Below are positions 18,500 to 53,178 of a stretch of 64,000 nt of DNA, in pieces. Under the pieces are notes generated by a model. That model was not told where the DNA came from and did not search any database. It worked only from the letters and a program-made list of their open reading frames with translations. The position numbers and the translations under genes are program-made. This DNA is from Neodothiora populina (Eukaryota), in NCBI RefSeq assembly GCF_041146345.1, contig NW_027191410.1, positions 434,001 to 498,000 on the forward strand. The letters run 5' to 3'. The first letter of the stretch is position 1. Each line of letters begins with the position of its first letter.

Positions 18500-18594
18500 G
18501 GCCGCGTGGCCCAATGGCAAGGCGCTTGACTACGATTCAATCTATTCGATTGAGCGGTATCAAGAGATTCCAGGTTCGACCCCTGGCGCGGTCA
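18500..18594 (+). tRNA. tRNA-Arg(ACG) with a 23-nt intron (18536-18558)
   Basis: Acceptor stem GGCCGCG/CGCGGTC, D-arm TGGCCCAATGG, anticodon arm CTTGA-CT-ACG-A[intron]A-TCAAG, T-arm CCAGG-TTCGACC-CCTGG, and an oligo-T terminator just downstream. Confidence 0.95.
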
Positions 18595-42660: not shown

Positions 42661-44008
42661 TCAACCACTACGACCTGCAGTGTTAAAGTCGCTGTATGCC
42701 TCATCTTGCTCTCTCCACTCAGCGCCGCCACCATAGACGCCACTCCTGCCCGCCATGTCGTCTTCGTCGTCGCTGTCGTCACTAGGCATCTGATCATCTC
42801 TGTGCAAGCGCTGTGGACTAACGATAACAGCGTCGTTCTCGGCCTCGTCGTCTTCAAAGGCAGCGGGATCAGTAAGACCGTGCATGCTCTTGCCAGCGCT
42901 ACCATCCTCGGCATCCAAAACCCCTTCGTCTGCAGAGACGGAAATGCCGCGGGGACCCCAGCTGTTACTCTGCTGTCGCGGGGGACCGCTCGGCCGTACG
43001 ATGCCTTCTTCTTGTCCAATGAATCTTTCGTCTTCCTCGTCAACTGCAGCGTCCCGAGCACCCCTTCCGCGACCTAACAGACGTCCCACGAGCCAGCCTC
43101 TGCCCAGGTCCTCACCGTCGACCACACCGCCGTACCTCAGTTTTACGCGTTGCCGCGTCCAGTACACCCAGGCAAAGTCGACGTACAAGAGCGTCTGCAC
43201 GATACCGAAAAGGACCGAGATGGGGAAGATGGGATCGACTGTGGTGATGTGTTTGGTGGTGGCAGCTCGCACGATCCAATTGAGGAGGTAGAAGAAGCGG
43301 TATGAGCCCAGAGTAGCGAGATAAAAGCTGTCCAGCACTGTAGGCACAGATGTCTGTCTCAGTAGCAAGAGCTGCGGTAGAATAGCAGTTGACTCCAGCG
43401 ATAGAGAGAAAGTGTATAGACTCTCGAAAGGGTGCTTGAGGCCCCATGCGCCCTCGAATATGGCAACGGCGATAGGTGCAGCAAGCACACTACCGCCTAG
43501 ACTGTACGCGCCTAGCCGCCATGCTTGCTCTCTCTCACGCGTGCGCGCAAACACGCGCAGCATGAGAAAGACAATGTAGGCTGAGCTGGTGATGTAGAAG
43601 ATCTTGAGTGTGAAGTTCCAGAAGGACTCGAATGAGTGAAAGGGTGCGCTCCATAGTAGATCGAGATAACGCGAACAGAAGACGAGGATGTACAGTATTT
43701 GTGTTATGAGAGAGACTCCTGGACGGCAGGAATGTCAATGTCAGCCCCGGGATGCAGGAGAGAAAGAGAGATGAAGACAGGGGAAGTAAGCTCCGTCGCA
43801 TCGGTCAGACAAACCTTCAGCAGAAGTGTTACTGTGTATGGACCATATCAGGATACACTTGGACACTGTATGAGAGACATCTCCTGCTCGGTTGTCAGCC
43901 ATTAATGTTCTTGTCGACTCGCTATCTCTACAATGCAGTGCGCCAGCCTCATCGCCAAGTGCTGCTGCCTAACATACCCAGTATCCGAAAGATATTGAAG
44001 TGGATCAT
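42661..44008 (-). CDS. ERD2: ER lumen protein-retaining (HDEL/KDEL) receptor-like protein with an acidic C-terminal extension
   Basis: Exons 44008-43978, 43883-43815 and 43718-42661. Motifs NIFRILGD.SH, SAEGVSLITQ.LY..VF.SRYLDL, FS..LESTAILPQL, YL.TLGSYR.FY.LNW and GIVQTLLYVDF. Confidence 0.9.
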
Positions 44009-44900
44009 GGTTATAGGTGACCGGTCAACATTGAATTCTGTTCAATAAACACTGCAACCTTCATTGCCCGAGATATACACAGACTCCCGTTTCATGCAGG
44101 CAGGCGGTTGCGTGGCCTCTTGACGTCGAGGAGGCGGAGTCTTTGTTTGTTTCACATCTGTGGCTCATTCCGGGGGATGAAGTCGTGGCTGAAGCTCAAG
44201 CTGGAGCTATCAGGCCTGCACTGAGGCAATCAAGCACTGAGGCAAATCGGCTATAACTGTCTCGCTATCTAATTACATATTGAAAGGCTGGGGATTGAAG
44301 GAAGACTCGATGCCCTAAGTCCAATTGATAAAAGCGGCTGGGAAGGATGCATGATGCTACTGGCCCACTTCTTGTAACAAGTAAGCTCTCATTAATTAAA
44401 TCACAATTCATCAGTATGTTTAATATTTCTGCTGAACCCAGCATTTGCATCTCGATCGTGAGCATGAACGAACGGCTTCAGGCATTTAAATGCATCCAAG
44501 CTCACTGCGCCGCTTCTGGCGTACAGGCATCATACAGCGGCAGTGCCAGCGTCGCAATAGGCGCAGCCTGTCAATGGCTAGAATATAAATAAAAACAAAT
44601 GTTCAGGTAGGTGAGCGGACTACTCATGCAGCTACATCTCGACACGCATACGTGCATCGAAGGACATCCTGGACGCCTTAGGTTCAACTCTCCGTCAGCC
44701 CCGCCTGCAGCTGCCCGTCCTGCGCACTATTGTCCTAGCTACTGTACCTTACGTCCAGCGCATCTCGCCCCCGCCGGCGCCACTGAGTCTCGCCTTGTGG
44801 AAATAGGTTGCCAACCTGGTTTCCCTGTTCACCGCTTCAGCACATATAGCAGCCGGAGGACCCACCTCCAAAGTATAAGCAATGACTACCGCCACCTTGC

Positions 44901-46160
44901 ATGGCGTCGTTCTCACTAATCATGGCTCCAATATCCACCTTGCATGCCGCTGCGCAAAATGTGCAGAACCTTGTAAAGGCCAACCCGTTCCCTGGAATCA
45001 GAACGCAGTGGCAGAATCCAAGTGACCTGTTTTCCATACTTCTAATCGTCGGTGGGGATATCATACAGCGAGCCATCGCGCAACTCTGCAGTCACTACTA
45101 TATCACCCCTGTTGCCTTTTCTTTCGGTTGGGTGGCGTATACCGTCAGCGCCATCACATCTGCAATCGGCGATGGCAAATTCATGCCAGAAACCGACTGT
45201 CCCGCGACCTTGATCAATGTCAAGAGTGGGTACAGCCGCGAGAACAACTCATGGATCCTCGGCCGTATCCTGCGCGACTGGGATGAAGGCGAATTGAAGA
45301 AAGACGGCAAAGACTACGCCCTGGTCATCAGCATGTGTACCCAATCCGCTGCGGAAGCGGGACGGCCGGCAATCGATTTCGTGTGGCAGCTGGGCGTCCT
45401 GACAATCATCGCTCAGATTGTCCTGTCTATAATCCCAGGCGTGAAATCCGGCGAATGGACCGTCCTGGTCATCACAGTCGGCGGCACACTGCTCTGTCTA
45501 GCCCAGAGCGCTCTCCCCCAATGGGACAAGGAAAAGTTCAAATGTCGCAAAGTGAGCAAAAAGCCTCAACAGATCGCTCTGACGAGGGGCAACGGGCACA
45601 ACCATGTTGTCTTTGTCGAGACAGAGGTAGAGGGACTCAACCTTGAGGACCTCGCCGTCGGCAGAGTCGACAAACATCACTCTACCTTACCCCTGACTCT
45701 CGCCTACTCGGTGTGTTGGTTCGTCCTGCTCCTCACGGCTATCGGCGTGGACACATACACATGGTATCTTCTCCTGATCGGCAGCATCGGCATGGTGCAG
45801 AACATCTTCGCTGCAGGCTTCAAACGGAAACCCTGTGCGTTCGGTATTCATCTGAAGCAATACGCCACCATAAAGCCCGCAGCAGCAGGTGACTCGCCAG
45901 AAAATAAAGTCTTCAAGGTCATCCAACAAGCAGAGGAGCAAATACCCGGACTGGGGTTGTCTCTTATGCCGATTTTCTTTCCAGGAACTTTGTTCCCTGC
46001 AGAGCAAGATTGGATGGGAAAGGCCATTGCGAAGAATAAACCGAGCAAGAAGAAAGATGGGGAGAAACAAGAGATAGATGTTGATATTCATGCAATTGCT
46101 GCAGCTCAAGCGACTGATGTTGCTCCTCAGCAGGTGAATCCTGAAATTAAGACGATATAA
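44901..46160 (+). CDS. Uncharacterised fungal multi-pass membrane protein (419 aa)
   Basis: Single-exon ORF with several TM segments. Motifs QW.NPSD.FSILLIVGGDIIQRAIAQL, PVAFSFGWVAY, R.N.SW.LGR.LRD, LPQW..EK, LTRGNG and G.IGMVQN, which I recognise from a fungal family of unknown function. Start may be 44922. Confidence 0.85.
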   Translation: MASFSLIMAPISTLHAAAQNVQNLVKANPFPGIRTQWQNPSDLFSILLIVGGDIIQRAIAQLCSHYYITPVAFSFGWVAYTVSAITSAIGDGKFMPETDCPATLINVKSGYSRENNSWILGRILRDWDEGELKKDGKDYALVISMCTQSAAEAGRPAIDFVWQLGVLTIIAQIVLSIIPGVKSGEWTVLVITVGGTLLCLAQSALPQWDKEKFKCRKVSKKPQQIALTRGNGHNHVVFVETEVEGLNLEDLAVGRVDKHHSTLPLTLAYSVCWFVLLLTAIGVDTYTWYLLLIGSIGMVQNIFAAGFKRKPCAFGIHLKQYATIKPAAAGDSPENKVFKVIQQAEEQIPGLGLSLMPIFFPGTLFPAEQDWMGKAIAKNKPSKKKDGEKQEIDVDIHAIAAAQATDVAPQQVNPEIKTI

Positions 46161-46390
46161 TATGGAAGATAATAGCATGATCAATGAAGTATAACGAATG
46201 TAATGATAAAAGACCTTGGTCGTCAAGACCACAAGAACAATTCTCACTCTAAGCTTCCACGATGAAAGGTATAGGTTCTAATCGAACAATAACACTCATA
46301 ATCAAGTATGATGTCGTGCAAAGTGAACCAGGACAACATGAGCGCATAAAATAGGAAAAAAGTGCAAATGAGTGTGGAAGGACAAAAGTT

Positions 46391-46497
46391 CGACGCCTGT
46401 GTGATTCGAACACACGCTCCCGAAGGAAATGCCTGTCGGCTAACAGCTCAAGAAGCTGAATAGCAGGGCATCGCGTTAACCACTCCGCCAAAGCGCC
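46391..46497 (-). tRNA. tRNA-Ser(GCT) with a 26-nt intron (46435-46460)
   Basis: Minus strand reads GGCGCTT-TGGCGGAGTGGTTAACGCG-ATGCC-CT-GCT-A[intron]A-GGCAT, long variable arm TTCC-TTCG-GGAG, T-arm GTGTG-TTCGAAT-CACAC, then AGGCGTC-G. Confidence 0.95.
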
Positions 46498-46863
46498 GTT
46501 GGTGTTGATGACGTAAGTTTCAGATACGTAATATTATATACTCTAGCAATTAAGCTTAGGGTTTCTTGGGAATATCTATGGACGATAGTAATATACTGTA
46601 GAAGTTCCCCTATTGCGAATTGTAAGGACATATATGGTGATTATGAGGTATAATACTGGTTCCGCAGTTCATGTAGCCTTCGATCGATCTAGGGGAATCA
46701 CCACTATTGCCATAGTTTCCACGTTCTCTCTTCCCGCATTGAACTTCTGCTCAGCTTTATCAGCCTACAGTAGATGCCCTCCACGGTCTAAAACTTCCGT
46801 CCTTGACAGCCCAAGCCTCACATGGACCGTGTATATATCTCTGAACCCAGTCTTCGAACATTC

Positions 46864-46916
46864 CTACATACGCAGTCAGCTCAAGCAGTCTAACAAGTGG
46901 AACTTATGGCACTTAT
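46864..46916 (-). other. Terminal 3'-processing intron of the candidate telomerase RNA (non-canonical AUAAGU 5' splice site)
   Basis: ATAAGT 46916-46911 (a second copy at 46907-46902), branch site GCTGAC 46880-46875 and TAG 46866-46864. It starts 3 nt after the Sm-type site. Confidence 0.85.
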
Positions 46917-49140
46917 CGGAAAAAATTGGGCTGCCTTCGTCTTCCCCAAGGAAGAGCAAAGGCAGCAAGAAACAGCGCCCAAATGCACCTATACAGCCCC
47001 TCATCCACTCTTCAACCTAGGCCTGCCAAACTAACCCTCGTCGACTATACTTGTTCACCTGATAGGACACAGAGAAAATCATGAGCCAAGGATCTCATAA
47101 GAGCCGTATCCTCCGCTGCCGCTCGGCGAATACTCAAGAGACTGAAATATAACAACAATAGATCACACATCTGGCGGATACAAGGAACAGACAAGCCAAA
47201 GCTTTGATCCTCACTCGAGAGAGGTCCTGTCCTTGTAGCCGTGACCCAGCTGTCACGATCATTGCGTTTGTGTGATTGTCCCGAGTCCGTGGGTGAGCGC
47301 AGCGGGTTCGAAACGGCTAGAAATCGAGGTTGATTGTTTCCCTTGCAATGTGCTACATCCACAGCGAACAAGTATTGCGGCAAGGATCAACCGACTGAGC
47401 CTTGACGTCGAGTTTCCGAACGACCATGTCCACCCTTGTGACTAACACTATGCAAACTAAACGACGTGGAATCCGAGTCAACCACACCAAAACGTATGCC
47501 TAGTCGTTACACTAGACCCTTGGAAAAACTCTCACGATTCAGATCAGCATCCTCTCTCAGTGTGTGATGCATTGCTCTCGGAGACACGTCTTTGTTTCCT
47601 CGTTCGCTCTGACAGGCGGGGCCAGGCAAGACGGGCATTTGTGGAAGCGAACAAAGTACATCATCAAAAATCGCTTCGGTCTTCGTCACGAAGACCACGC
47701 AGCCTCTTCAGCAAGCTGAGGAGCGCGCAGGAGGTTCGGCGTCCATCAATCGACTTCCTTGTCAAGCAAGGAAGGAGACGGTTAACGTGACTGATCGAGA
47801 CAGTGGCGATTGAGCCAGCAGAACCTGGAGCTGGTGCTTACGGTTCTGGCTCGGCAGCCGATTTCGTAGCAACCAAGAGCGGAGAGAAGGTAGATGGCTG
47901 TCTCGAGCGTGAAGCTGAGAATAGTGGGTAGAAGAACGGTACGGGTGATCTTTGTCGAGATAGTCGCAAGTTGATGTGCAGACCAATGCAAGAACCATTT
48001 GCGTGACGATATCCTTACCTTTGAGGACTCAGACAAACCATGCAAGCCACGACATCTGCACGTGAGCGTACATCAGACAGTACAGGTTGAGAGGCAAAGA
48101 TATACAGAAATCAGGAGACATCGATATGCCATGGGGTGACAGCACGACCTGCAGATACCTCTGTGTGTAGCTCGGTGGCCTTGCTACGCGCAGGTGCACG
48201 ATTCTGGCAAGTGCCTGTAGAAGAGCCAGGTGGAGGTAGCAACAGTCGTCCTTCGTCTGTACGGAAGCAATATCGAGCTCATCTCTGAATACCTGAGCTT
48301 CCCACTGCCAGCCATCCGTACATCTCACAACAGGCACCTTGAGGTGCTAATGACGCTTTGCATGATTCGCAGGGTCCGGATCAGGAGTACCGACTTTGCT
48401 GGACACTTGTATGTGTCGACACCTCGCAAGTCTGTCCACGACACGAGCAAGACCCCAAAGACATCCTCATACAAGGTGCCCGACGGTTCTTGCCTACCCA
48501 GCCCGAATGTAATTGCCACAACAGACCGTAAGAGCTGTCCGTGTATGATCAGAGCATGTTGTCCAGCCAGCCGATTGACGCGTGGGTTCTCAGAACCTCT
48601 TATCAAAACGACGCATATAAAGGCTGCGATTAAGGCTAATGCAGCACCGGACGTCAACGACACTTTGACTCCCGTTGCCGTGATCTTCATATCGATGCCA
48701 CCCCGAAGAGAGTATGCAAGTCAAGAAAGAAAGCGCGAGGAGGTAATCACGAAATTGGCAGCTTCCTGGCCAGAGGATCACGAGACTTAAAGAACCGAGA
48801 ATAGAGCATTAGGGTTAAGTTCCGGGATACATGCCCACCTGCGTTACCTTGCACCAGAACACGCGCCAGCAGCCCAGTGTGAGCCATGCTACGAGGCTCG
48901 AGCGCAGCGCGTGCACCGATGTAAGGACTGTACAGATGGCTCAGAGAGATCCCAACCTCGGGAGAAGTCGAAAGATGCAGCCCGTGACTGTAGGGAGAGT
49001 GCCATGCGCATGTATTAGAGAGACGACTGATTTCTGAATCGAGAAAGCATCAAAGAGCCCAGCTTCGCGATATCAGCGGCATCACGGTGGTGGGTTGAGT
49101 TGGTGATCGATTGAATGAGGAGTGTGTGTAACAAAGGCAG
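46917..49140 (-). ncRNA. Telomerase RNA (TR/TER), about 2.2 kb; 5' end approximate
   Basis: Template TAACCCTAA 48817-48809. Candidate pseudoknot 47677-47588. P5/P6/P6.1 three-way junction 47237-47179. Nested 5'/3' long-range helices. Terminal hairpin 46966-46930, Sm-type site AATTTTTT 46927-46920, then ATAAGT (46916-46911)..GCTGAC..TAG. No credible ORF in the interval. Confidence 0.87.
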
Positions 49141-51085
49141 ATGTGTATGCTACGGTAAGAAGCTCGACAGAGGGCAAACATATAAATAAGGTCAGAGTCC
49201 GGGCGCGTTACATCGATAAGGCGATAAGACGTTCTTGGCGGAACTGTCGCGTCGCGCTGTCACGTTGCTCACGTATTGCCAAAGAGGCGACTTTCATCAC
49301 CATCAGTTGTGCATGATGCACGATATGATTACAATCTTGATCTACAGATACCAAGTAGCATGATTGTGGTACGGTCGGATATAGTCCTCATGCCTTGAGT
49401 GCTACATTCTGCTCTACATTCTGCTGACATTAGTAAGGATTTTGAGCCCCTGCAAATCAGATTTCATCCGTGCTAATGGAAGGCAACTCGTAAGATTGGA
49501 CAGTCGTACAACTGCAAAGACCGAACAACCGTGGGGAATTTGAACGTGGGGTATATTTTTTGTGGCTCCAACTACAGGTAGCCCGATATAAGCTTGACTT
49601 CTCCGCATGTTTTTCCGACCAATACGCCTTGAAACGCCTGGCCATGCCATCTCTCACACTCAGATATGGTCCCAGCCAAAGTAGCCTGATTCTGAGAACG
49701 CTCCTGCTAGAACGCGCAAGGAGTGCGCTCGACTAAAGCAGCTAACGGGAGCTAATGGGATCTCATTGCAGGCGATGCTAATGTGTCGCGTAGGATGCCC
49801 ATGTATGATCTGGATCGTGTGTCGTTATTGTAGGTTCCCTCTGGTATGCAGCTTCATCCTCGCATTTCCGTGTCTGCGCCCTTGGTAGCGGCGTCCTTTG
49901 CAGCGATCCATAAAACGTTGTTGCACCTGTGACAGAGTTCAAGATTAGCGAGTCGTCCACGACTTGACTCTGAGTTGGTCCGAACGACAGATCGCCACGG
50001 TGTGAACTACCGCCACGTGTACAATCTGGTAGGGAAGAATGGACATGGTTACCTGATGAGGACCTGTCCCAGGCTACCAGTGCTCTTGCCATCCATATAT
50101 TCTTCGGCGTTGCTGAGTTGTATGTTCATGTATGAATCGACGGAGACTAATAGACCAGTGTATTCGGAGGTTCCCCACTTCAGACGAATTCTGACTTCCT
50201 CGTTCACACTGCAATGGGGCGTCAGTGTCTATAGGCGCAATGCTAGTCATCAACCAAGGACGTACAGAGATTGCAGCATAGGCCGCGGGTTCAGAGGTAC
50301 AAACTAATCGCTGTCAGTAAAAACTCTCCTGAGGATATAATGCGCAACACCTACGCTCATGTTTCCGACGGCTTGTGATGAATTTCAAGTCGAAGTAAAT
50401 TGGTCCTGGACGTTGTCGCGCGCTGGATGAATCTCACAAGTGACGGGGGAGCTGTAACAACGGAGGTTGGCTTCACGGCTACTTCCGTCGCCAAGCTGCG
50501 TGCCAGCAACGTGTACATGGAATCAATCGCTTTACTTCTTGCTCACTTTGGCAACACCTTATTGACATTCGATCCTGCAATATCCTGAAACAGACTATCG
50601 ATGCTATCGTCTGACCACCTGACCATATCTACTTGATCGATGAGTATCACTGTGACGCGAGTTCGTTTACATTGACCCAATTGAAAGGACTTTCGCTTGT
50701 GCTATCCACTATCTGAATCTGTAGCAATGATGGTATACTAGCTACGCACCGAAATGGATGTCGCCTTGAGGAGAGCGATGCTGAATCGGGTACAATGAGC
50801 ACAGTATCATATCTCTTGCATTTTGTGAGGGATCGGATTGATAAAGCTTATGAGAGCAGCGATCCCGGCGACCGCTTCCTTCAATGAACCCCGCAATCCT
50901 GATAAGGTGCCTTAGTTGGGGGGATGTGGGAAGCTACAGCGCCTGTTTGTGAGTCAATGATAGCAGTGTCACGGAGTCATACGAACCTTCAAGTAACACC
51001 CAAGCAAGCTGGTCAGCGTCTCGTTGGAAGGCGCACTGTGACTGCTTGTCTCCATTCTCTCAATCACAAAAGAAACTCTATCAGC

Positions 51086-51941
51086 ATGCCTCAGTTCTAT
51101 GGGTCCATGTCAGACAGCCTACGCGACTGGGCACTTGGTCAACACGTCTTCTTCATCGCATCCGCACCCCGATATGGGAAGCATGTGAATGTATCCCCTA
51201 AGGGCCTTCCAGCATCCACATTCACGGTACTCGATCCGAACACAGCCTGTTACATTGACGCTACGGGGTCTGGTGCCGAAACCATCGCACACATGTATGA
51301 GACAAGTCGTGCAACCGTCATGTTCTGCTCTTTCGATAAAAGTCCGAGGATCTTGAGACTCTTCTGTACTGGACGTGTAGTCGAATTTGACCAGCCGGAG
51401 TACGAAGGTCTTTTGAAGAAGATGGGCAAGGAGCAACTCTCCGGCGCCAGGGCTGTGATACTGCTCAACATCTTTAAGGTCAATATGCCCCACCTTGGCC
51501 CCCGGAAGGCTGTGCATGCTCATAACAGTATAGGTCCAGACATCTTGTGGCTATGGTGTGCCACTTTTGGCAGACGTAGATAAGTCTGAAGTCGACAACG
51601 AAGAACCACGAGCTCGATTCGAAGACCGTCAAACCTTAGGCCACTGGGCGTCAAAGCGGGTCGAGAAAGGGGAGATGGTAGACTATCAAGCCAAGAACAA
51701 CGCGAGGAGTCTAGATGCGATGCCTGGACTCAAAGCTGCCAGAAGAACGAATGGCGAAATGATCTGGCTCGAAGACTTCAAGGCATTCCTAAGGACATTG
51801 TTGCACCAGTGGCAAGCCGTCATCATTGGTATGTTGTTGGCTATTGCATTGACCTCGATAGGCGATGGGTTTCTGATAAAGTTTTGTTTCCTCATCGTTG
51901 CTCTCATCTCTTTTTCTACAGCATCGACCACGATTCATTAG
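51086..51941 (+). CDS. Pyridoxamine 5'-phosphate oxidase-like FMN-binding split-barrel protein with a hydrophobic C-terminus
   Basis: Exons 51086-51478 and 51534-51941. Motifs FFIASAP..G.HVNVSPKG, Y.DATGSG.ETIAH, R.TVMFCSF...PRILRLF, VQTSCGYGVP and YQ..NN.RSLD.MPGL. Confidence 0.9.
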
Positions 51942-52973
51942 GAGAAAGGACGTGGCCTCCCACTGTCACCTTGCTGTCTGTGTGATGTGGTCACTTATTG
52001 ATAGCAATATCTAATGAATCAAAATGCGTTGTGCTGAGAATTCCTCGCTCCATAACTCACTAACTGATCAATTTATACCTGCTCAACTAGCCAAGAGCGC
52101 TGAAAGTGTTGAAGCACCCACAAGACAAGACTCATAGATGTGTACTTCAGCCGTACCTGACATAAACATCACTACTCATTCCTTTTGGGAGCATCTCACA
52201 ATGAGTAGCTATGAGGATATTGTTAACTGTCGAACATATCACGCCGTGACCCACCAACATCCAAGACCAGGAAGACATTTGCATAGTAGAACCAGATACT
52301 TAGGGTAACAGTAAGAGAGGGCATCGGGAGTAGGTGTATAACCAGAACAGTAGGTGACACGATGTGTGACTCGGAGTTCTTAGAGTTCTCGTCTCGCCAT
52401 GAGCGCAGGCGTGAAAACTCCCCTTCTTTTCATGCATTAGGTTCGTACCACACATACAAGAGCGCTGCAATTTGATCGGATGGTGGCCAGAATATGTAGC
52501 TTTAGATGACCCACACAACTATAGCTCTTCTCATCATTATTGCCGAAAGGCTATCATGCCACCATACCAACTAATTGAAAATATGGCGAATCAGAGACGA
52601 ATACAGTCATATCCGTGTCTAGCACATCCATACACAAAGGTCACAAATCGACAGTATCGAACAAAGTATGGTGATGATTCGAGGACATCTTGATTCATCA
52701 GCTTACCCTACCTAGTCATCTCTCCTCTTGCCATTCATCATTCCTGTACGACTCAATAAGCGGGCCGCCGGTCACTCAAAGGATGGACGGGTGCCAGCCA
52801 TACTGCCTGGAGCGGTCTCAAACCTTATTCTCGTTGCTTGGCCTGCGTCAACAGAGATCTTCGATCGCCACGCCTATATCAGCGACTTTAACATCGACGA
52901 CGATACAGTATTGGAATGTATACTAGGTACCTAGTTTTGTTTAGCTTATGGCTCTTATGAACATTTCCTTACG

Positions 52974-52992
52974 CTCTCTCTCTCTCTCTCTC
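52974..52992 (+). repeat. (CT)n microsatellite upstream of photolyase
   Basis: Read directly from the sequence. Confidence 0.85.
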
Positions 52993-53178
52993 CACATCTG
53001 CGGTCTACCACGTGTGTGTCTGTTTACATTCACGCTATATCCATCCTCGTTGTTAATACGCCATCCCACATACCACTGCTGAAGAAGTGTATTTGACAAA
53101 TCCAGATACGTTCGGAAGAAATCAATTGATCATCAAATCGATTTCACCTCTCTAGGTACAAGTAGAACATATTCAGCC

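Follow-up and report, generated by a model that had tools for sequence, protein, structure and literature searches.

What does a 2.2-kb interval encode that was noted on the minus strand of contig NW_027191410.1 as lacking open reading frames (ORFs)? The stretch analyzed is 64 kb long (64,000 nucleotides, referred to here as the window), and a preliminary description made from its letters had proposed that this interval holds a gene for telomerase RNA (TER). The sequence and the covariance models examined in this study indicate that the ORF-less interval (~49209-46918) is very probably the TER gene of a filamentous ascomycete. When the window was read for motifs, all of the elements of Pezizomycotina TERs were found on the minus strand in the correct order, and their combination lies far beyond chance. 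For the pseudoknot and the three-way junction, homology extends to both sequence and structure, and the remaining motifs are established by their presence and order. The proposed identity was supported by the Rfam family RF02462 (Telomerase_Asco), by two covariance models (R1 and R2), by the block order of the published Aspergillus alignment (Kuprys et al. 2013, PMC3603654, Figure S1) and by compensatory changes. The elements that had been listed were all recovered from the sequence, at most about 6 nt from where they had been placed.

Homology of the pseudoknot and the three-way junction

To obtain relatives, metagenome contigs were scanned with a gapped pattern for two pseudoknot anchors, and at least 115 loci matched. 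Seven of the matches listed were judged TER-like on inspection of the inter-anchor sequence (L006, L036, L041, L059, L070, L113 and L115). A further 107 loci were taken as chance matches, and a half-similar locus, L077, was rejected, having no Rfam match (E≤1), template or junction. L036 was omitted from the alignments, as it repeats L006 over the stretch shown. The other six, including L006 on a contig of 530,764 bases, are complete or partial filamentous-fungal TER genes, and long blocks of L006 and L070 read nearly letter for letter like the Aspergillus alignment. The ten Aspergillus TERs of that alignment were compared by eye, and no Aspergillus sequence entered the alignments or models described below.

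When searched with RF02462, L059, L113 and L115 scored 418 to 553 bits over most of their available length, and L006 and L070 scored 50.7 and 44 bits, respectively, in the pseudoknot part only, both above the gathering score. L041 gave no match at E≤1 and was retained because its junction and 3' motifs are present. In the window, a search of 3.3 kb (46300-49600) with an E-value threshold matched 47583-47674(-) to model positions 1285-1381 of 1858, with 24.6 bits and an E value of 7.1e-5. RF02462 recognizes only the pseudoknot in TERs that are distant from the model, and the window behaves likewise.

Two further models were built with the window excluded. The junction model R1 was derived from L006, L041 and L070, using a region that had played no role in their retrieval, and the pseudoknot model R2 was derived from six TER loci, five of which are Rfam TER matches at 44 to 553 bits. 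Each produced a single match over both strands of the 64 kb, R1 at 47178-47241(-) with 62.9 bits (E 1.4e-19) and R2 at 47546-47682(-) with 73.3 bits (E 2.8e-14). The Infernal search with pseudoknot and CR4/5 models that had been suggested as a check was run in three ways, and RF02462, R2 and R1 all matched, the latter two uniquely. With blastn, colinear high-scoring segment pairs were obtained for the pseudoknot block against L006, covering 47801-47550 (E 1.4e-21), and for the junction against L070 (E 1e-11). A reversed-query control with blastn returned no matches.

The pseudoknot, which had been placed at 47677-47588 as a U-rich candidate, was located with slightly shifted ends (Table 1), as matched by RF02462. 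Seven sequences were aligned over the 21 pairs of PK1, PK2 and the PK2.1 base. Of the cells in this alignment, 97.2% formed standard pairs, compared with 43 to 56% when the partners were slid by 1 to 3 columns, and none of 500 shuffles reached the observed value. Double-sided changes were found at 4/21 pairs (alignment columns 12-33, 27-100, 51-88 and 52-87). Three of these are carried by the window, namely, G-C to A-U in PK1 and U-A to G-C and C-G to U-A in PK2.1, and the fourth, U-A to C-G in PK2, is common to the window and L041. The nested fold of the stretch was not significant (z score −0.87), which is expected because the stretch is a pseudoknot. From the U tract and the A tract, we infer that a U-A.U triple helix would form. 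The GCGA/UCGC variant of PK1 also occurs in A. clavatus.

Upstream of the pseudoknot lies a conserved block whose counterpart in the Aspergilli reads UAACC(A/G)UCUC, a hairpin UUUGCAAU/AUUGCAAA and then GAUUGAUGGGCGCCGA. Compared with these, the flanks are kept in the window, whereas the hairpin helix is replaced on both strands. By eye, the motif GAUUGAUGG(G/A)CGCCGA after the hairpin is common to the window and the Aspergilli.

For the junction, four sequences were aligned over 14 pairs. All cells were paired (100%, versus 25 to 50% when slid), and double-sided changes were observed at three pairs, two in P6.1 and one in P5. The observed value was reached in 33/500 shuffles, a weak result with so few sequences. 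The junction, previously placed at 47237-47179, folded as drawn, both locally (z score −2.42) and in the global minimum free energy (MFE) structure of the 2288-nt RNA. The A between P6 and P6.1, which according to a review is needed for TERT binding, was invariant in all four sequences. In the published alignment, the A. oryzae junction is near-identical to that of the window, with few positions differing.

Template, candidate boundary helix and core-enclosing helices

Table 1. Features of the predicted TER gene and of its surroundings, with positions counted from the first base of the window
Feature	Positions	Strand	Details
Predicted TER	46918..49209	-	~2.2-2.3 kb; 3' end within or beside the U tract after predicted cleavage at 46917/46916
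Promoter-like element	49248..49266	-	AACGTGACAG then CGCGACGCG; fits CRCGDCGCG; presumed function
TATA-like element	49180..49189	-	TTATTTATAT; putative; may be internal to the RNA with a 5' end at ~49205
Core-enclosing pairing, 5' strands	48994..49030	-	AUCAGUC.GUCUCUC ... GCAU.GC.CUC
Candidate template-boundary hairpin	48819..48860	-	GUUCUGG (48860-48854) with CCGGAAC (48825-48819), 1 nt short of the template
Template	48809..48817	-	UAACCCUAA (TAACCCTAA); 1.5 repeats complementary to TTAGGG; context GGAACUUAACCCUAA
Conserved block before pseudoknot	47736..47785	-	UUAACCGUCUC, hairpin CUUCCUUG/CAAGGAAG, then GAUUGAUGGACGCCGA
Pseudoknot	47583..47674	-	PK1 GCGA/UCGC; U5 tract; PK2 GAUGU.CUUUGU with ACAAAGAC..GUC; PK2.1 base CCCGU with ACG.GG; A-rich GAGGAAACAAAG
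Core-enclosing pairing, 3' strands	47544..47581	-	GAG.GC.AUGC ... GAGAGA.G..GCUGAU, with conserved ACACAC between
P5/P6/P6.1 three-way junction	47180..47236	-	P5, P6, unpaired A, P6.1 (AAGC-UUUG-GCUU, 4 bp)
Terminal hairpin	46931..46965	-	−25.7 kcal/mol; z score −5.04; 0/200 shuffles as good; in global MFE
Sm-like site	46918..46930	-	CCCAAUUUUUUCC; C-rich/U-tract; putative; mature 3' end expected within
Terminal intron	46864..46916	-	predicted; AUAAGU 46916-46911; second AUAAGU 46907-46902; branch GCUGACU 46880-46874; UAG 46866-46864
tRNA-Ser(GCU)	46391-46497	-	Rfam 45.2 bits; no ARAGORN call
Uninterrupted ORF	44901-46157	+	419 codons; adjoins tRNA-Ser(GCU)
tRNA-Ile(GAU)	18500-18594	+	95 nt; called by Rfam and ARAGORN

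The template was found exactly where it had been described, and TAACCCTAA occurs once in the 64 kb when both strands are counted. The global MFE left it unpaired. The TERs of the window, L006, L070 and L059 have the flank GGAAC(U/C)U in common, with 16/16 identity between the window and L059; in the Aspergilli, this position reads GGGAA(U/C). After the template, UCGGUU is shared with the Aspergilli (by eye), whereas the well-conserved block that follows there (GAUGUCCAGAGCC...) is only partly recognizable in the window. The template of the predicted TER sets the expected telomere repeat as TTAGGG.

A candidate boundary hairpin ends next to the template and was recovered in the local MFE. In the global MFE, an alternative partner, AGUCACGGG at 48989-48981, was preferred for 48826-48818, and this site corresponds to the position of the partner strand in relatives. 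The letters of the boundary partner strand differ between the window and the Aspergilli.

The 5' core-enclosing strands cofolded with 47585-47540 into 22 bp in two blocks, an inner one and an outer one (49030-49018 with 47544-47558) that was also present in the global MFE, in which the helix spans about 1470 nt. In L006, L070 and the Aspergilli, nested helices occupy both of these positions but differ in sequence, and the ACACAC and GAGAG motifs were found in 7/7 aligned TERs.

Several observations weigh against assignment of the interval as a TER gene. Rfam at gathering thresholds reported two tRNAs and no TER in the whole window, the RF02462 match of 24.6 bits being below the 30-bit gathering score and confined to the pseudoknot. 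The anchor pattern was taken partly from the pseudoknot of the window itself, and the letters of the R2 anchors are therefore common by construction to the comparison loci; the junction model R1 is free of this. In the window, the sixth pair of PK2.1 is mismatched (C.A) and does not form. The energy of the core-enclosing duplex was reached in 12/200 shuffles, which is moderate support. The local boundary hairpin was not significant (z score +0.74) and was missing from the global MFE, and the two boundary pairings compete and are mutually exclusive. The template 9-mer is weak evidence taken alone, at least one copy being present in 16/100 shuffles. Finally, the evidence is of sequence and predicted structure only.

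The frequency of the 9-mer in shuffles would suit a chance gathering of TER-like motifs, whether in intergenic or regulatory DNA or in a long non-coding RNA of another kind; AU-rich anchor motifs are likewise common, with only seven TER-like loci among the at least 115 metagenome matches. Against this, two independent domains ~350 nt apart match R1 and R2 at E values of 1e-19 and 1e-14, respectively, with the right order, strand and spacing, and motifs for both 5' and 3' processing are common to the window and the Aspergilli. The probability of such a coincidence therefore appears to be close to negligible.

The locus could also be a duplicate of TER that has lost its function, the working gene lying elsewhere in the genome. 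Copy number was assessed within the 64-kb window, the Rfam score is lower than those of L006 and L070 (24.6 versus 50.7 and 44 bits), and one pair of PK2.1 is mismatched, all of which would fit a pseudogene. This explanation is nevertheless considered very unlikely, since all of the functional elements are intact and ordered, the promoter-like element and splice signals among them, and the changes in the helices are compensatory rather than disruptive. TER is generally single-copy in the fungi described, which also counts against a duplicate. A functional TER gene hence remains the preferred assignment.

Predicted ends of the RNA and terminal intron

The promoter-like element fits the consensus CRCGDCGCG, which has been placed 39-48 nt upstream of the mapped TER 5' end of A. 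oryzae (Kuprys et al. 2013, PMC3603654). It also resembles CACGTG-N4-(N)CGCG(A/T)CGCG, the block with which the Aspergillus alignment opens and which is marked there as 'Promoter?' (PMC3603654). In L006, CACGTGACCGCGCGTGTCGCG was found ~405 nt upstream of the template. The distance from motif to template is ~430 nt in the window versus ~350 nt in A. oryzae (alignment numbering), the 5' region of the predicted TER being longer. Extrapolation from the Aspergillus motif spacing would set the 5' end at ~49209-49200, and a start 30 to 60 nt downstream of the TATA-like element would set it at ~49160-49130. That element, previously noted at 49188-49180, was present with one additional base, and its function is putative. 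The 5' end is therefore uncertain and is expected between about 49210 and 49130, a range of ~70 nt. As to the interval of 46917-49140 proposed previously, its lower limit stood, because the predicted 5' splice site AUAAGU (46916-46911) starts immediately after 46917. Its upper limit falls within this uncertain range, and the promoter-like element that also occurs in the Aspergilli is upstream of it.

The terminal hairpin, Sm-type site and AUAAGU-initiated intron that had been described were all present, in that order. A hairpin occurs at the same place in the Aspergilli and L006. The putative Sm-like site, with its U tract, was single-stranded in both the local and the global MFE, and its counterparts follow the pattern CGGC3-5U7-12 in Aspergillus, with GGCCC-AAUUUUUU in A. 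niger. The A. niger 3' cassette (hairpin, CCC-AAUUUUUU and AUAAGU) is nearly repeated in the window. When the A. niger sequence was placed in S. pombe, the RNAs ended within the Sm-like site (Kannan et al. 2015, PMC4299874).

Counted from the first AUAAGU, the intron would measure 53 nt, and from the second 44 nt, with the branch A 12 nt from the UAG. Both motifs and spacing match those of the Aspergilli, in which the 5' splice site is AUAAGU and the branch site is GCUAACU, or GCUGACU, as in the window, in A. terreus. The U tract, AUAAGU and branch site occur in the same order in L006 and L041. The Aspergillus AUAAGU is reported to direct cleavage by the first splicing step only, and mutation of A1 to G abolished function (Kannan et al. 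2015, PMC4299874).

In the window, AUAAGU occurs twice, 9 nt apart (CCG-AUAAGU-GCC-AUAAGU, 46916-46902). A second copy was seen in 0/10 Aspergilli within the aligned stretch and in none of the stretches examined of L006 and L041. This could offer two alternative sites for first-step cleavage, or a back-up site. For the boundary helix, the usual partner strand may have changed, with a candidate new partner close by. A doubtful but conceivable extension of these observations is that this TER comes from a lineage so diverged that it misses the Rfam threshold, with the duplicated AUAAGU and a re-wired boundary helix as two small departures from its relatives. If true, both departures would show 3'-end formation and boundary definition drifting while the catalytic core is fixed.

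We infer the transcription, RNA ends, processing pathway, protein binding and activity of this TER by homology with the Aspergillus, Neurospora and fission-yeast TERs. Transcription of a precursor would start downstream of the CACGTG-like/CGCGACGCG element, and at AUAAGU (46917/46916) the spliceosome would carry out the first transesterification only, freeing the 5' exon; the second step would be blocked because of the A at intron position 1. The 5' exon would then be trimmed to the U tract (46930-46918) that follows the terminal hairpin. Within the mature, ~2.25-kb RNA, the core-enclosing pairing would bring the single-stranded UAACCCUAA beside the triple-helix pseudoknot, and the separate P5/P6/P6.1 junction would bind TERT. 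TERT would copy the template into TTAGGG repeats, with the template-adjacent helix halting the copying.

Neighbourhood and comparison with known telomerase RNAs

Three ORFs of 130 to 189 codons inside the TER interval were scanned, and none matched a Pfam family. The presence of such stop-to-stop ORFs would allow an intron-containing protein gene with TER-like elements in its untranslated regions or introns, and one basidiomycete TER is reported to be processed from an mRNA (PMC9564094). Besides the lack of Pfam matches (0/3), the ORFs occupy both strands and run across conserved blocks of the RNA, and the Aspergillus orthologues are described as intergenic non-coding genes in nearly all cases (PMC3603654). 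A protein-coding origin of the elements was therefore judged exceedingly unlikely, and a non-coding TER gene is retained.

The TER locus is probably absent from the annotation. This had been anticipated and is plausible, as nothing is reported there at the Rfam gathering threshold, and the locus would thus represent a gene that standard RNA annotation overlooks. One run (X1; word share 0.09, probably DNA) gave six small contigs on 43000-53000, of which one, of 260 nt, is identical to 47401-47660; these have no bearing on expression. TTAGGGTTAGGG was not found in the 64-kb window with up to one mismatch.

Approximately 370 nt downstream of the TER intron and on the same strand lies the tRNA-Ser(GCU), with an intron (28 positions unaligned in the Rfam match), a long variable arm and the anticodon loop CU-GCU. 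It had been proposed as a syntenic neighbour, which was not borne out at L006, the sole other TER locus with enough flank, where 1.8 kb of sequence downstream of the TER showed no tRNA. The neighbouring photolyase was placed in Ascomycota by an Atlas look-up. The 419-codon ORF beyond it matched no Pfam family at E≤0.01. In the 1.6 kb upstream of the promoter-like element (49300-50900), 23 ORFs of at least 50 codons were listed, none of eight scanned (67 to 124 codons) had a Pfam match, and there was no Rfam match at gathering. The ORF-poor gap amounts to ~4.4 kb, and the TER accounts for only about half of it. Elsewhere in the window, the length of the tRNA-Ile(GAU) suggests an intron.

The Aspergillus study mapped the A. 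oryzae TER by rapid amplification of cDNA ends and covered 13 Aspergilli and relatives (Kuprys et al. 2013, PMC3603654). The TERs in its alignment have the same block order as the window, including the promoter-like block, template context, CS3/CS4, core-enclosing strand, junction and 3' cassette (PMC3603654). A block of UAUGCGU...ACGCGUC...ACAUGCU is also common to both. The predicted RNA of ~2.25-2.29 kb is longer than the 1930-2130 nt given for the Aspergilli but of the same ~2 kb size class (PMC3603654). Of four pseudoknot and template strings of the window that were searched for, three were absent from the supplement of that study, and the species of the window is therefore none of the ten aligned Aspergilli. 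The window thus adds a moderately divergent TER sequence for comparison among filamentous fungi, with compensatory changes in PK1, PK2, PK2.1 and the pre-pseudoknot hairpin and a complete 3' processing cassette.

Seventy-three Pezizomycotina TERs, including that of Neurospora crassa, have been described with two core domains (Qi et al. 2012, PMC3592445). Like these, as far as that paper describes them, the predicted TER has a template-pseudoknot domain (PK1, PK2 and PK2.1) with core-enclosing helices, a P5/P6/P6.1 junction, a TTAGGG-type template and a length of ~2 kb. In Schizosaccharomyces pombe TER1, a terminal intron likewise stands just after the Sm-like site and undergoes the first splicing step only; the second step is blocked there by features of the branch site and distance, whereas the window, like Aspergillus, has a non-canonical A at intron position 1 (PMC4299874).

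The known architecture and biogenesis of telomerase RNA are left unchanged by this locus, which is an orthologue within the well-described Aspergillus/Neurospora family and an ordinary member of it. Vertebrate TERs carry an H/ACA 3' domain, which the TER predicted here is not known to have. The two have in common a UAACCCUAA-type template, a pseudoknot with a U-A.U triple helix (predicted in the window), a P6.1 of 4 bp and, between P6 and P6.1, an unpaired A. Compared with vertebrate TER, the RNA predicted here is about five times longer, has a candidate boundary helix beside the template in place of P1 and has a predicted spliceosomal 3' end.

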